Shown: one piece after another, positions 58,805-64,000 of the stretch
How positions within the stretch are numbered: the stretch's first letter is position 1
Layout: the number at the start of each line of letters is the position of its first letter
From: an uncultured delta proteobacterium
GTDB taxonomy: Bacteria > Myxococcota_A > Polyangia > Polyangiales > Polyangiaceae
NCBI GenBank assembly: GCA_963782055.1
Contig: CAWAIF010000003.1
Coordinates: 3,424,001-3,488,000 of the forward strand
Direction of reading: 5' to 3'
DNA: 64,000 nucleotides
Made by a program: the position numbers and the translations under genes
Notes under the pieces: model-generated
Told to the model about the DNA's origin: nothing
The model's input: only the letters and a program-made list of their open reading frames with translations
Databases searched by the model: none

Positions 58805-59250
58805 GGCTGTCGGCCGGCCTTCGGCCGGGCCTCAGGTGACGTGCCCTTCGGGCTGTCGGCCGGCCTTCGGCCGGGCCTCAGGTGACGTGCCCTTCGGGCT
58901 GTCGGCCGGCCTTCGGCCGGGCCTCAGGTGACGTGCCCTTCGGGCTGTCGGCCGGCCTTCGGCCGGGCCTCAGGTGACGTGCCCTTCGGGCTGTCGGCCG
59001 GCCTTCGGCCGGGCCTCAGGTGACGTGCCCTTCGGGCTGTCGGCCGGCCTTCGGCCGGGCCTCAGGCGACGTGCCCTTCGGGCTGTCGGCCGGCCTTCGG
59101 CCGGGCCTCAGGTGACGTGCCCTTCGGGCTGTCGGCCGGCCTTCGGCCGGGCCTCTGGCGACGTGCCCTTCGGGCTGTCGGCCGGCCTTCGGCCGGGCCT
59201 CAGGTGACGTGCCCTTCGGGCTGTCGGCCGGCCTTCGGCCGGGCCTCAGG
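58805..59250. repeat. Tandem array of a 46-bp multi-hairpin unit (9 full copies plus a 32-nt partial)
   Basis: Unit GGCTGTCGGCCGGCCTTCGGCCGGGCCTCAGGTGACGTGCCCTTCG starts at 58805, 58851, ... 59219; no spacers. Confidence 0.97.
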
Positions 59251-60274
59251 CCTCGACGAGCGTGACCTCGTGGACGAGTGTGCCGAGGCCGTCAATTTCC
59301 AGCTCGACGACATCTCCCGGCTTCAGCCACTGGTTGTCGGTGATCTTGGAGCCGTTGAGCTCGAGGAAGCAGCCCGTGCCGCACGTGCCGGAGCCGATGA
59401 CGTCGCCCGGATAGAGCGTCACGCCATAGCTCGCGCGCTCCATGATCTGGGCGAAGGTCCACGTCATGTCCTGCGCGTTGCCCTTGGAGACCTGCACCCC
59501 GTTCACCCGCGCGGTCATCTCCAGCGAGAAGCGGTTGCCGCTCTGGGTGTGGATGGTCTTGGTGGCGAGCTCGTCCATCGTGACCAGGTGGGGGCCGAGG
59601 CCGGTCGCGAAGTCCTTGCCCTTGGTCGGGCCGAGCGACAGCTTCATCTCCTCCATCTGCATCGCGCGCGCGGAGAAGTCGTTCATCACCGTCATGCCGA
59701 AGATGGCGGCATCGGCCTGCTGCACGCTCAGGTTCCTCCCGCGCTTGCCGACGACGATCGCCACCTCCAGCTCGAAGTCCAGCCGCTCCAGGTGGCGCTT
59801 CTGGACCTGCAGCTTGCCCGGGCCGATGACCGCCTGGTGGTTGGTGAAGTAGAACACCGGGAACTGGTCGAACTCGGGGATCATCTCCACGCCGCGGTTG
59901 CGGCGCGCCGTCTCCACGTGCTGGCGGAAGGCGTAGCCGTCGCGCATCGACGGCGGCCGCGGCAGCGGGGCCTCCAGCGTGACGGTGGACAGCAGGTGCA
60001 CCAGCGACATGCCGTCGAAGGATGAGGGGAGCTTGCCTTCGGTCAGGGTGGCGAGGATGGCGTCGGCGGCCGGGCGGGCGACGTCGGCGTGCTCGATGAA
60101 GCCGAGCACCCCGCTCCCGTACCGGGCCTCCAGCGCCGCCGTGTGGCACGGACGGCCGTGCGTGTGCTCGAACCAGGCGAAGGCATGCGCCAGATCGACC
60201 ACCACCGGGCTGGGGCCTGTGACGACGACGCCCGCGCGCGGGTGGGCGTCGATGCGGAAGGTGACGAGCTTCAT
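59246..60274 (-). CDS. Fumarylacetoacetate hydrolase family protein
   Basis: RDGYAFRQHV, LDFELEVA, NDFSAR, KGKDFAT, GDVIGSGT, WLKPGDVVELEI. Confidence 0.92.
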   Translation of the reverse strand: MKLVTFRIDAHPRAGVVVTGPSPVVVDLAHAFAWFEHTHGRPCHTAALEARYGSGVLGFIEHADVARPAADAILATLTEGKLPSSFDGMSLVHLLSTVTLEAPLPRPPSMRDGYAFRQHVETARRNRGVEMIPEFDQFPVFYFTNHQAVIGPGKLQVQKRHLERLDFELEVAIVVGKRGRNLSVQQADAAIFGMTVMNDFSARAMQMEEMKLSLGPTKGKDFATGLGPHLVTMDELATKTIHTQSGNRFSLEMTARVNGVQVSKGNAQDMTWTFAQIMERASYGVTLYPGDVIGSGTCGTGCFLELNGSKITDNQWLKPGDVVELEIDGLGTLVHEVTLVEA

Positions 60275-60369: not shown

Positions 60370-60849
60370 GTGTACTTACGGCTTCCGCGCGCGGCGCTGG
60401 GCGTTCTCTACGAGGTCTCGCGGCATCTGCTGCGCCGGCCGGTGGTGGGAATCGCCGCCGCAGCGCGGGTCGACGACGGCCGCTTCGTGCTGATCCGGCG
60501 GGCGGACACGGGCACGTGGTGCCTGCCCGGCGGCACCCTGGAGTGGGGCGAGACGCTGCGGTCATGCCTGCTCCGCGAGTTGCAGGAGGAGGCGGGGATC
60601 ACCTCCGGGGTGCGCGATGTGCGTGTCCTGGGCGTCTTCTCCGACCCCGGGCGCGATCCGCGCTTCCACGCGGTGACCGTGCTGGTGGCGTGCCGGGTGG
60701 ACCCGCCCTCCCGCGCGCCGGAAAATCCCCTGGAAATCCGCGAGGCGAGGCTCTTTGGCCCCGACGAGGCCCCGCGGCCGCTGGCGATGGGGATGGACGA
60801 CCTCTGGGAGCGGGCGCGCACCGGGCGGACCGACGTGGCCCTCGAGTAG
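60370..60849 (+). CDS. NUDIX hydrolase
   Basis: Nudix box GGTLEWGETLRSCLLRELQEEAG; SDPGRDPR. Confidence 0.88.
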   Translation: MYLRLPRAALGVLYEVSRHLLRRPVVGIAAAARVDDGRFVLIRRADTGTWCLPGGTLEWGETLRSCLLRELQEEAGITSGVRDVRVLGVFSDPGRDPRFHAVTVLVACRVDPPSRAPENPLEIREARLFGPDEAPRPLAMGMDDLWERARTGRTDVALE

Positions 60850-60881: not shown

Positions 60882-62072
60882 ATGGAACGGATCGGGGAGT
60901 ACCTCATCAAGCGGATGGTCGGCGAGGGCGGGATGGGTCGCGTGTACGAGGCGGAGGAGCGTCTCTCCAAGCGCCGCGTCGCCCTGAAGGTCCTGCGGCA
61001 GGAGCTGCTGCGCGACGAGGACGGCCGGCGGCTGTTCCAGAGCGAGATGCAGATCCTGGCGCACCTGGAGCACCCCAACCTGGTGCGGAGCCTGGCCTCG
61101 GTGGAGGAGGACGGGCAGCTGGTGCTGGTGCTCGAGTACCTGGAAGGCAAGACGCTGCGCGAGGTGCTCAACGACCGCGGCGCGCTGCCCTGGCAGGAGG
61201 CGGTGGAGATCGTCGCGCAGATGGCGGCGGCGCTGGGCGTCGCGCACGCGCAGACGCCGCCCATCGTGCACCGCGACCTGAAGCCGGAGAACGTGATGGT
61301 GTGCGACGACGGCGTCGTGAAGGTGATGGACTTCGGCATCGCCAAGGTGCTGGAGCAGGCCCACGCGCCGAGCACGCAGAGCATCGGGACGCTGCAGTAC
61401 ATGAGCCCGGAGCAGATCGACGCGCGCCCCATCGACGCGCGGAGCGACCTGTACGCGCTGGGGCTGGTGCTCTACGAGCTGCTGGCGGGGGAGCCGCCGT
61501 TCCGCTCGGCGTCGCCGCGCGAGCTGCTCAACCTGCAGTGCACCGCCGAGCCCTCGGCGATGGAGGACGTGGAGGTGCCGGCGGGCGTCGAGGACCTGGT
61601 GTTCGACCTGCTCGCCAAGGACCCGGCGGAGCGGCCGGAGTCGGCGGAGACCGTGCTGGACGCGCTCGCCCCCCTGCGCGCGGGACGCAAGACCAAGAAG
61701 ACGCGCGGGGCGAGCTCCGGCAAGCCGGGCCGCGCGGAGAAGACGCTCCCCGCGGAGGAGGCCGACGACGCAGAGCCAGCGCCGCGCGCGGTGGCCGAGT
61801 CGCGCACGGGGGGCACCCTGGACTCGTCGCCGCCCCGCAAGAACGACACGGTGGCGCTGGTGGAGAAGGCGACCGCCCCGCGGCGGATCTCCATGCGCTG
61901 GGGCGTCGGGCTCATCGTCGCCGCCTCGCTCCTCTCCGGGCTGGCAACCTACGGCGTGCGCACCCACTACTGGGGCAAGAGCAAGACCGCGGCGAGCGTG
62001 AACGCCGACGACACGCCGGGCGGAGACGACGGCACGCCGCGCGGCGACCACGGCGCCTCGCGGGCGCGCTGA
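60882..62072 (+). CDS. Hanks-type Ser/Thr kinase with a C-terminal TM
   Basis: GEGGMGRVY, VALK, HRDLKPEN, DFG, YMSPEQ, DLYALG; TM WGVGLIVAASLLSGLATYGV. Confidence 0.93.
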   Translation: MERIGEYLIKRMVGEGGMGRVYEAEERLSKRRVALKVLRQELLRDEDGRRLFQSEMQILAHLEHPNLVRSLASVEEDGQLVLVLEYLEGKTLREVLNDRGALPWQEAVEIVAQMAAALGVAHAQTPPIVHRDLKPENVMVCDDGVVKVMDFGIAKVLEQAHAPSTQSIGTLQYMSPEQIDARPIDARSDLYALGLVLYELLAGEPPFRSASPRELLNLQCTAEPSAMEDVEVPAGVEDLVFDLLAKDPAERPESAETVLDALAPLRAGRKTKKTRGASSGKPGRAEKTLPAEEADDAEPAPRAVAESRTGGTLDSSPPRKNDTVALVEKATAPRRISMRWGVGLIVAASLLSGLATYGVRTHYWGKSKTAASVNADDTPGGDDGTPRGDHGASRAR

Positions 62073-62085
62073 TTGGGGCACGGCG

Positions 62086-64000
62086 ATGAGCGCGCAGGTC
62101 GCCACCGTCCTGGGGCGCGTGGGCCGCGCCGAGAGGGTGCTGCTGCAGGATGGCCGCGAGGCCTGGGTGCTCGACGCCGCCGACGCCTCGCTCGCGCGCC
62201 GGCTGGCGCGTCTGGGGCGGCGCCGCCTGGGAGGCTTCACCGCCGCGCGCGGGCTGCTCCCTTCGCGGGGCGACGCGCCGGTGCTCGTGCGCGCGCAGGG
62301 TCGGACCGTCGACGCGCTGGTCCGGGGGGAGCGCTTGCCCTGGCGCGAGGTGCTGGCGTGTGTCCGCGATCTGGCCAGCGCCCTCGCCGAGTGCGAGCGG
62401 CGCGGCTGGTTCCCCGGCCCGCTGGGCCCGGGCCAGCTCGGGCTGGAGCCGGAGGCGCACGTGCGGGCTGATGCGCTGGTGGGCGCGTGGCTGGGGGAGG
62501 GGACGAAGGACAGGCCGCACTCCCTCCCGTCGCCGCGCTGGACGCCGCCGGAGCAGAGCGAGGGGGCGCCCTGGGACGGCGCCGCCAACCGCTACGTGCT
62601 CGGCCTGCTGGCCTACCGGCTGATCGCCGGCGCGATGCCCTTCGCCGGGGAGAGCCTGCGCGACGACCTCGGTGAACGCAGCGAGGCAGGGGCGCCGCCC
62701 TTCGACGAGGCGATCGCCCGGGAGCTGGAGCCGGGTGTGCAGAGCCTGGTGCTCTCCATGCTCGCGCCTCGCGCGCAGGACCGACCGGCGAACGCCGCGG
62801 CGATCGTCGCGGCCTGCGCGGCGCTGCTCTCCCCGCCACGCGCCGGCGTGGCCAGTGCAACCGTCGCCGGGGCCGCCCCGGCCGCGCCCGCCGCCCAGCG
62901 GGAGGTGGCGTCGGATCGCAAGCGTGCTGGCAATCCGCCGGGGCCCGCGGCCGCGCGGCTGGGTCTCCCGCAGCTCGGCCGCCGTGGGGTCTGGTCGGTC
63001 GCGGCGGGGCTGCTCATCGCCGCCGGCGCCCTCGCCGCCCCCGGCCCGCGGACGACGCCGCGCCGCACGCCCAGGGCAGCCCCCCTGCGCGACACCGGGG
63101 TCTCGGCGTGCGCGTCGTGCCACCCGAGCGAGGTGGCGCAGTGGAAGCGCTCGGTGATGGCGCACGCATCGAAGAGCCCGCTGTTCGGCGCGCTGGAGAG
63201 CGCGGTGGAGGAGCAGGTCGGGCGCAGCTTCACCTGCCCCAACGGCGCGGGCGTCCTGCGGCGGCCCGCGACGGACGCGTGCCGCGACGAGCGCACCGGG
63301 CTGGTGGTGACCGGCACCGGCGGCGAGGGCTGGTGCATCAACTGCCACGCCCCGGGGGAGAACCTGCGCGCGAGCGCGCCGGCGTGGAGCGCGGTGCGCC
63401 AGGACGGCTCGCGCGAGCCGCTGGTCGACCTGCTGGCGCGGCCCTCGCTGGAGGGCATCTCGTGCGCGGTCTGCCACCAGACGGTGGGGCCGGTGGGCGA
63501 GCACGGCCGGCACACCGGCGCCTACGAGGGCAACCCCACCTGGACGAGTCCCTTGACGGGTCAAGTGTTTGCCTCCCGGCCGGAGGACCTCGCGGGCACG
63601 CCGGGGATCGCCAACAGCGGCTACGATCTGGAGGCGGGCCTGCTGCTCGACCGCGCGCGCCCCGGCGACCCGACGCCGCACGGCCACGCCGACGCGGCGG
63701 CGGAGAGCTACCTGCGCTCGAGCGAGTTCTGCGGCGCGTGCCACGACGTGCGCCTCTTCGGCACCGACGCGGTGGGGGTGGTGCAGCGCGGCGAGCACTT
63801 CAAGCGGCTGCGCAACGCGTATTCGGAGTGGCGGACGTGGGCGGACGGGGAGCGGCGCGCGGGGCGAAAGCCGGCGACGTGCCAGGGGTGTCACATGAGC
63901 CGCTACCCCGGCGTGTGCGTGCCCGCCCCCGGCGCGGCCGGCGACGCCGACTGCCCCTCCGGGACGCGCTTCGAGGCGCGCGCGCCAGGCGCGGGCGGCA
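62086..64000 (+). CDS. Pseudokinase-TM-multiheme cytochrome c fusion (partial, runs off the window)
   Basis: Open frame from ATG 62086 to the window end. RWTPPEQ..NRYVLGLLAYRLIAGAMPF; TM VWSVAAGLLIAAGALAA; CASCH 63109, CINCH 63334, CAVCH 63463, CGACH 63730, CQGCH 63880. Confidence 0.85.
   Translation, partial: MSAQVATVLGRVGRAERVLLQDGREAWVLDAADASLARRLARLGRRRLGGFTAARGLLPSRGDAPVLVRAQGRTVDALVRGERLPWREVLACVRDLASALAECERRGWFPGPLGPGQLGLEPEAHVRADALVGAWLGEGTKDRPHSLPSPRWTPPEQSEGAPWDGAANRYVLGLLAYRLIAGAMPFAGESLRDDLGERSEAGAPPFDEAIARELEPGVQSLVLSMLAPRAQDRPANAAAIVAACAALLSPPRAGVASATVAGAAPAAPAAQREVASDRKRAGNPPGPAAARLGLPQLGRRGVWSVAAGLLIAAGALAAPGPRTTPRRTPRAAPLRDTGVSACASCHPSEVAQWKRSVMAHASKSPLFGALESAVEEQVGRSFTCPNGAGVLRRPATDACRDERTGLVVTGTGGEGWCINCHAPGENLRASAPAWSAVRQDGSREPLVDLLARPSLEGISCAVCHQTVGPVGEHGRHTGAYEGNPTWTSPLTGQVFASRPEDLAGTPGIANSGYDLEAGLLLDRARPGDPTPHGHADAAAESYLRSSEFCGACHDVRLFGTDAVGVVQRGEHFKRLRNAYSEWRTWADGERRAGRKPATCQGCHMSRYPGVCVPAPGAAGDADCPSGTRFEARAPGAGG

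Follow-up and report, generated by a model that had tools for sequence, protein, structure and literature searches.

The locus considered here raises the question of what a protein that combines a kinase-derived domain with a multihaem cytochrome might do, and whether it is likely to act alone. It lies at the end of a 64,000-nucleotide stretch of DNA from an uncultured delta proteobacterium of the Polyangiaceae (assembly GCA_963782055.1, contig CAWAIF010000003.1, positions 3,424,001 to 3,488,000), referred to below as the window. A reading made from the letters alone (the sequence-only reading) had proposed that a gene starting at position 62086 encodes a one-piece transmembrane receptor, linking the state of periplasmic haems to a cytoplasmic kinase fold. 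Our analysis indicates that the parts of this protein are of known kinds and that their fusion is a real, conserved and apparently undescribed architecture. We further propose a receptor made of two chains, in which the fusion would do the sensing and the ectodomain-less Ser/Thr kinase encoded immediately upstream would supply the catalytic activity, a reading of the sequences to which we would give a little less than an even chance.

The fusion gene and its product

The frame opened by the ATG at 62086 reaches the end of the window without a stop, as had been noticed before, and following the contig of the same genome past the window completes it. The full product has 973 amino acids (aa), the stop falls at G000:C3:3489007 and 1007 bases of the gene lie outside the window. 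All the motifs quoted in the sequence-only reading are found in the translated protein, in which a degenerate Hanks-kinase domain is followed by a linker, one hydrophobic helix, five CxxCH haem motifs and a C-terminal extension (Table 1); third-position GC content is 0.82-0.97 in every segment of the gene.

A database search returned 770 proteins at E ≤0.001 among 8000 candidates scored, and the 120 listed ones, query included, were analysed and provide the homologue counts given below. Their database labels are Polyangiaceae and Labilithrix, and an Atlas cluster of 283 members, mostly Myxococcota, carries the automatic name 'serine/threonine protein kinase'. A further 57 loci were mapped, of which 17 came from the best-scoring matches and 40 were hand-picked with short open frames deliberately included; three distant paralogue loci were excluded. 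The two parts share one open reading frame (ORF) in 49 of the 57, so that the proposed fusion recurs in other Myxococcota genomes and the explanations that it is an assembly artefact, or two separate genes in its relatives, are rejected. Of the remaining loci, three stop short of the kinase part, another three are without it, and at two (L057 and L058) the parts stand in different frames; these two cases, like the breaks inside the cytochrome at L030, L034 and L035, are presumably frameshifts or sequencing errors. A longer fusion, P0392, is a single match that holds out-of-frame stretches and was treated as an artefact. The C-terminal third of the fusion matches 95 of the 201 family genomes, essentially as a single copy, and in a sample of the phylum 2 of 372 were full-length matches from outside the family.

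Table 1. Features of the fusion gene and of the kinase gene ahead of it, with positions in the window
Feature	Position	Strand	Remark
Intact Hanks Ser/Thr kinase, 396 aa, helix near C-end, short tail	60882..62072	+	Pfam Pkinase E 5e-57
Pseudokinase-helix-pentahaem fusion gene	62086..64000 in window, continues to G000:C3:3489007	+	first 638 of 973 codons
Degenerate kinase N-lobe, about residues 5-80	62098..62325	+	no β3 Lys, no αC Glu
Pseudokinase C-lobe, residues 81-248	62326..62829	+	HRD changed to PGP, αF Asp to Arg
Ala/Pro/Arg-rich unconserved linker, residues 249-300	62830..62985	+	mean column conservation 0.14
Single predicted transmembrane helix, residues 301-319	62986..63042	+	basic residues ahead
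Haem motif 1, CASCH	63109..63123	+	invariant in 120/120
Met358, at position of post-haem-1 His of 5ZE8/MccSep	63157..63159	+	inferred His/Met haem ligand
Haem motif 2, CINCH	63334..63348	+	counterpart is the active-site haem in MccSep
Haem motif 3, CAVCH	63463..63477	+	
Haem motif 4, CGACH	63730..63744	+	
HFKRLRN, residues 571-577, basic segment at MccSep haem-2 Cys ligand site	63796..63816	+	119/120
Haem motif 5, CQGCH	63880..63894	+	

The kinase ancestry of the N-terminal part is well supported, and at several levels of comparison. A phmmer search with the single sequence matches MARK4 (E 5e-6), the family profile matches PknB (E 1.6e-14), and a profile-profile comparison with the family of the adjacent kinase gives a probability of 99.4-99.8%; the APE Glu is found in 110 of the 120 homologues and the αH-αI Arg in 118. 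The sequence-only reading had listed a C-lobe pattern alone, and a degenerate N-lobe is in fact also present. It was right that the catalytic loop is lost, given that the HRD His, the HRD Asp, the catalytic-loop Asn, the DFG Phe and the αF Asp are each found in 0/120 homologues, as is the motif HxD[LIV]K. The β3 Lys (0/110 non-gap rows) and αC Glu (0/112) are missing too, with column assignments that are less sure in the N-lobe because its register differs between two alignments. The claim that the DFG motif and the Gly loop have gone holds in part: the Phe has indeed been lost, but an acidic residue (Asp or Glu) occupies the DFG-Asp position in 106/120 homologues and one Gly-loop glycine is kept in 101/107 non-gap homologues. 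An active Ser/Thr kinase was therefore rejected on the loss of the β3 Lys, αC Glu, HRD Asp and catalytic-loop Asn across the homologues. The domain also falls within a published definition of pseudokinases, in which at least one of the β3 Lys, HRD Asp and DFG Asp is absent (PMC12599244).

Conservation is unevenly spread over this domain. The N-lobe is its variable part (conservation 0.50) and is missing in 4/120 database homologues, whereas residues 147-248, from the P+1 loop through αG to αI, reach 0.75, equal to the haem domain, and 32 of their 102 columns are conserved to at least 95%. Family-specific invariant residues in the C-lobe include Trp163, Arg169, Arg192 and Gln219. A Ser or Thr is kept at position 146 in 91/117 homologues and at position 149 in 99/117, and Ser146 and Ser149 align with Ser167 and Thr170 in the activation segment of the neighbouring kinase. 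Judged from these alignments, the kinase-derived domain is catalytically dead yet constrained in its C-lobe. The defence kinase MAD6 of the MADS system was considered and rejected, as NCBIfam model NF047741 gives 32 bits, over the C-lobe only, against a cut-off of 460. The named pseudokinase families ActPs1-3, GLW, CP1 and DYD, compared through a review's descriptions of them (among these GLW at the HRD position, a link to COG3899, DYD and loss of αG), are not matched either, the catalytic loop here being PGP, αG being conserved and the partner domain being a cytochrome (PMC12599244).

The helix that follows the linker is only modestly hydrophobic in the query (KD19 1.71), and the helix ahead of haem 1 has a hydropathy of at least 1.6 in 119/120 homologues, query included. 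Net positive charge is higher before the helix than after it in 112/120, and neither the first 40 residues nor the part beyond haem 1 has another hydrophobic stretch of this kind (0/120 homologues each). The attachment of c-type haem takes place outside the cytoplasm, three haem-assembly genes are present in the organism's own genome, and the ectodomain holds eight further invariant Cys. On these grounds the predicted topology places the kinase domain inside and the cytochrome outside, the orientation proposed in the sequence-only reading, and does not leave both domains on one side of the membrane.

The cytochrome part has exactly five CxxCH motifs, as had been counted from the window, at residues 342, 417, 460, 549 and 599. 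Five are found in 120/120 homologues, and no more than two appeared in any of 10,000 shuffled versions of the protein. A profile built from 39 sequences matches Thermochromatium tepidum cytochrome c552 (5ZE8) at E 2.8e-27 and MccSep (9WT8) at E 7.7e-14, both of which a single-sequence search of the Protein Data Bank with the ectodomain had missed; cytochrome c554 scores far behind with the same profile. The likeness to c554 that had been suggested earlier extends to the first haem only (Pfam profile positions 1-24 of 84; 1BVB at E 0.14) and that family was rejected. The C-terminal region gives weak collinear matches to residues 278-337 and 366-418 of 5ZE8 and may form an immunoglobulin-like (Ig-like) β-sandwich. 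By sequence the cytochrome is a member of the pentahaem/Ig-like (PHC) family.

Which PHC function it might retain is a separate matter. In MccSep, or ExtKL, a tetrameric polysulfide reductase of Geobacter with five haems and an Ig-like stem, haem 2 is ligated by a Cys (C239) and the catalytic selenocysteine (Sec) lies in an AGH-x-x-P-x-G-U loop (PMC13510729). In the proteins studied here the Sec position is taken by Phe718 in 120/120 homologues, and a Cys between haem motifs 4 and 5 is found in 0/120. A polysulfide reductase of the MccSep type was rejected, there being neither a catalytic Sec or Cys nor a Cys ligand to haem 2; the mapping of the basic HFKRLRN segment onto that ligand site is uncertain by one residue. 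Met358 is found in 120/120 homologues, within a W..S.M pattern, and the change is common to 49 of the 70 representative proteins with the motif. Also invariant in the ectodomain are His532, His641 and His712. These features would fit four capped haems, one of them His/Met, and a haem 2 whose pocket is basic and possibly open or His/Lys-capped. Past the window, a clade-specific insert at residues 815-854 (L001:6528-6647) contains a CVxC that does not vary, a further pair of Cys and several Asp, and could form disulfides or a metal site.

The adjacent kinase and the redox genes

The gene for the intact kinase stops 13 nucleotides before the fusion gene. The motifs VA[LV]K, HRDLKPEN, DFG and YxSPEQ are intact in 120/120 of its own homologues, and the kinase lacks an ectodomain, a short tail following its helix in 16/16 loci. 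It stands directly upstream of the fusion gene in 53 of the 57 loci, which are all those with upstream sequence, the other four being contig ends. Among the 201 family genomes, 94 of the 95 that bear the cytochrome also match the kinase, and in the 95th the kinase is cut by the start of a contig. None of the three genes tested is matched in 97 of the 201, and eight genomes match the kinase only: two of one genus without the three redox genes at the locus, two with double-kinase paralogues and four at contig ends. This constancy supports a functional pairing of the two proteins.

The pairing also seems to reflect common descent. The adjacent kinase is the best intact-kinase match of the pseudokinase profile in its own genome (E 1e-24), and trees join the two against the other kinases of that genome, with support of 70 in FastTree (147 kinases), 89 in a further tree and 93/88 in IQ-TREE (24 kinases). 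Because of this best match and this grouping, it is likely that the adjacent kinase is the parent of the pseudokinase through a tandem duplication that was followed by fusion. Swapped ectodomains on the pseudokinase were looked for at 17 loci with an unpaired or paralogous kinase, several of these loci being cut by contig ends, and none was seen. Two further observations concern the kinase: a juxtamembrane motif, DTxAL (window 61845-61862, kinase residues 322-327), occurs in 103/120 kinase homologues and is largely retained where the pseudokinase is lost, and in a set of double-kinase membrane proteins (P0276, P0278, P0282, P0285, P0293 and P0354; L095 and L096) the second domain closely resembles the kinase of this operon.

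On its other side the fusion gene overlaps the next gene by four bases (ATGA). The product of that gene has two cyclic nucleoside monophosphate (cNMP) domains, iron-sulfur (Fe-S) motifs and a membrane part with no Pfam match, in which four His are conserved at 90% or more among 44 such proteins. It is followed by a gene for a tetrahaem/Fe-S/flavin adenine dinucleotide (FAD) oxidoreductase and then by one for a vWA protein. These three genes are found in 51, 49 and 32 of the 57 loci respectively, some of the misses being contig or locus ends, and no further ORF with at least three CxxCH, as a candidate decahaem, was found close to the locus. The gene first described as that of a one-piece receptor is a genuine fusion and part of a redox operon, and the domains encoded there suggest that electrons may pass from NAD(P)H to the pentahaem or the other way.

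In one alternative the pseudokinase is a scaffold in the manner of EssB/YukC, dimerising or binding cNMP/Fe-S or vWA-associated partners so as to assemble the redox complex, and does not engage the kinase. EssB/YukC, which spans the membrane and has a pseudokinase whose three motifs are all degraded, serves as scaffold for a type VII secretion machine (PMC12599244), and in the present case the ATGA overlap, together with a match to the cNMP/Fe-S gene in 92 of the 95 cytochrome-bearing genomes, would fit such a role. The kinase is nevertheless the more constant neighbour, as the cNMP gene lies apart from the fusion at three loci and no locus with upstream sequence is without the kinase; those operons that lack the pseudokinase, moreover, retain all the redox genes. 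We regard a scaffold of this kind as improbable.

The surroundings vary between loci. Two loci of one genus (L063:9596-10564 and L064:9640-10470) have an opposite-strand gene with a secreted-looking product between the fusion and the cNMP gene. Ahead of the operon, a subset of loci has a NUDIX hydrolase gene (window 60370-60849) and a divergently read gene (window 59246-60274) that we take to be fumarylacetoacetate-hydrolase-like. After the vWA gene, several loci encode a 601-aa membrane protein (L001:13124-14929) with no Pfam match and with motifs that are presumably metallophosphoesterase-like. Elsewhere in the organism's own genome are two more stand-alone PHC-type pentahaems (G000:C3:3589330-3591006 and C3:6800154-6801629) and a multihaem cluster (C3:3619138-3627247). 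Genome G014 (L040:3061-9838) has a separate trio resembling the ptd genes discussed below, namely an FAD oxidoreductase that bears three FHA domains, which are readers of phosphothreonine, together with an Fe-S protein that has two cNMP domains and a pentahaem anchored in the membrane.

A proposed two-chain receptor and its rivals

If the fusion and the upstream kinase are indeed the sensing and catalytic halves of one receptor, the pair, probably born by tandem duplication, may place Ser/Thr phosphorylation under the direct control of the redox or ligand state of the periplasmic haems, a proposal that we advance tentatively. With similar caution, the cytochrome ectodomain may be wired to an electron chain linked to NAD(P)H and to cyclic nucleotides. 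In such a scheme the tetrahaem/Fe-S/FAD and cNMP/Fe-S/membrane proteins would shuttle electrons from NAD(P)H to the periplasm or back, and would in this way set the redox state of the pentahaem domain. Haem 2, which has a basic pocket and no longer the Cys ligand or the Sec partner that it has in MccSep, would bind or turn over a small anion or gas. The redox or ligand state would then alter clustering of the ectodomain, which we prefer to rigid transmission because the linkers are floppy; it is in keeping with this that MccSep, to which the ectodomain is related, forms tetramers (PMC13510729). Clustering would in turn set the pseudokinase C-lobe, from the activation segment to αG, against the kinase and alter its activation, with Ser146 and Ser149 as possible phospho-acceptors.

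Such a contact has some precedent. The αG helix mediates most kinase dimers that undergo trans-autophosphorylation (PMC13232308) and PknB dimerises front-to-front (PMC6213207). By analogy, a C-lobe face of this kind, conserved here, is a plausible contact surface, and the αG region of the adjacent kinase is itself nearly invariant. As for the receptor in one piece that had first been proposed, its fusion and its predicted topology stand, and yet it is probably incomplete, an intact kinase being always found upstream; this, together with the two long unconserved linkers, is why we turn to a mechanism with two chains.

Several observations weigh against our proposal and need careful consideration. 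The conservation of the linker is 0.14 and that of the stalk 0.32, which makes rigid signalling along one chain unlikely, and support for the pairing of pseudokinase and kinase falls under the tree tool's star threshold, the pseudokinase branch being long. Gene order and co-occurrence among kin show neither contact nor direction, and no sequence feature was found that tells outside-in from inside-out signalling. The pseudokinase domain is cleanly absent in 3/54 loci with upstream sequence, with the kinase and redox genes kept, and one of the three cytochromes concerned begins with a lipoprotein-like signal. Two of these forms nest inside starred clades of fused forms, which identifies them as secondary losses; the tree does not place the third clearly, and a database protein that also lacks the domain falls outside these clades. 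At two loci of one genus (L092 and L093, genomes G065 and G127) a block made up of the fusion gene and the two redox genes is missing, and the kinase persists and is followed directly by the vWA gene.

These losses bear on the pairing in a further respect. The kinases at the five pseudokinase-less loci show 9, 21, 7, 7 and 5 changes at conserved columns, whereas 52 other kinases, scored by leaving each out in turn, have a median of 2 changes and a maximum of 7. Their flanking genes are not elevated at three of the five loci, the other two being without a flanking-gene control. This speaks for the pairing. At the three domain-loss loci, however, divergence is raised in the cytochrome and in the two redox proteins as well, so that the extra divergence of the kinase is not specific and also counts against us. 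It suggests relaxed constraint on the whole system in pseudokinase-less lineages, of which there are four at most. Gln124 is changed in 4/4 and Ile153 in 3/4 of these lineages, and we make no claim of site-specific covariation because pseudokinase-less operons diverge faster overall.

Clean loss of the domain would fit an inside-out switch like mycobacterial MviN, in which PknB phosphorylates the pseudokinase; this domain recruits FhaA, and the host protein can do its core job without it (PMC12599244). Here the kinase, cued otherwise, would phosphorylate the pseudokinase, which would recruit a partner or change assembly and so turn the electron chain or the activity of the cytochrome up or down. 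Ser146 and Ser149 are retained, and the three FHA domains on the flavoprotein of the G014 trio indicate that chains of this type can be targets of phospho-control. Pfam-level scans, on the other hand, found no FHA domain in the proteins of this operon, and a kinase without a sensor domain of its own would leave the input to the switch unexplained. We consider this unlikely, whilst taking it seriously.

The same losses could also mean that the cytochrome does no more than end a ptd-like chain as its enzyme, or carry its electrons, and that the kinase part, a leftover of gene duplication and fusion, is a membrane anchor with little regulatory function. The distant relatives of the cytochrome are mostly stand-alone pentahaems with signal-like N-termini, secreted or lipoprotein, and some are fused to RCC1, lectin or membrane domains; the domain has been lost at least twice, the three redox genes have been lost together, and the N-lobe is missing in a few homologues. 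An anchor does not readily account for a C-lobe under constraint equal to that on the haem domain, with family-specific invariant residues, nor for retention of the domain in 51/54 loci with upstream sequence, and we think this explanation rather improbable.

Related systems and what the fusion may mean

Comparison with described systems helps to place the fusion. The PHC family covers pentahaems such as these, including the PHCs of cable bacteria, and 5ZE8 is given there without a clear function (PMC11976967). With 5ZE8 and MccSep the fusion shares five CxxCH and a GH-x-x-P-x-G loop, and its C-terminal region is probably homologous to the Ig-like stem. It differs from them in having an N-terminal pseudokinase and membrane helix in place of a signal peptide, Phe at the Sec position and Met at that of the post-haem-1 His, no Cys between haems 4 and 5, the eight extra invariant Cys and the clade-specific C-terminal insert.

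The operon as a whole recalls ptdABCDEFG, which is known from genomes and transcripts only and whose function is stated to be unknown (bioRxiv 10.1101/2023.11.21.568154). In that account PtdA is a pentahaem with a β-sandwich, PtdC an FAD/NAD(P) oxidoreductase, PtdD a tetrahaem, PtdE a cNMP and Fe-S protein and PtdF a ferric-reductase-like membrane part. Domains like those of PtdA, PtdC, PtdD and PtdE occur in one cluster here, as three fused proteins, a likeness judged by domain content against the paper's descriptions and not by sequence comparison. The four conserved His in the membrane part of the cNMP/Fe-S protein could belong to a haem-b module like PtdF. In contrast to ptd, no PtdG-like decahaem gene lies near the fusion locus, and the available part of the paper's account mentions no kinase or pseudokinase.

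Among pseudokinases, MviN is likewise a membrane protein with a cytoplasmic Hanks-type domain that lacks the three catalytic motifs, is dispensable for the core function and is tied to an active kinase. It acts, however, in cell-wall synthesis and forms a back-to-back N-lobe dimer, (PMC12599244), whereas in the fusion it is the C-lobe that is conserved and the N-lobe that varies, and a multihaem cytochrome is attached. EssB/YukC and the GLW family share the order of a pseudokinase followed by a single membrane helix, but no haem ectodomain is described for them, and the catalytic loop of the fusion is PGP, not GLW (PMC12599244). The words 'cytochrome', 'heme', 'myxo' and 'Polyangi' do not appear in the main text of this 2025 review of bacterial pseudokinases, and a literature search, with most subscription papers outside its reach, found no published description of the fusion.

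In eukaryotes, HER3 is an ectodomain-bearing dead kinase that is paired with an active paralogue, HER2. This is an analogy only, since the ectodomain is unrelated and contact between the two proteins is, in the present case, only proposed.

Few jobs are known for bacterial Ser/Thr pseudokinases, and the main text of the 2025 review names none with a haem ectodomain (PMC12599244). If the proposed pairing is true, an envelope electron chain would be tied directly to Hanks-type phosphorylation, and these bacteria would offer a parallel to receptor pseudokinase/kinase pairs. The system also gives a handle on the role of the widespread ptd-like operons and on what PHC cytochromes without selenium bind, and the natural variants without the pseudokinase, without its N-lobe or without the redox genes represent ready comparisons. 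Should the kinase part be an anchor only, the fusion would still be a clean example of the repurposing of an enzyme domain.

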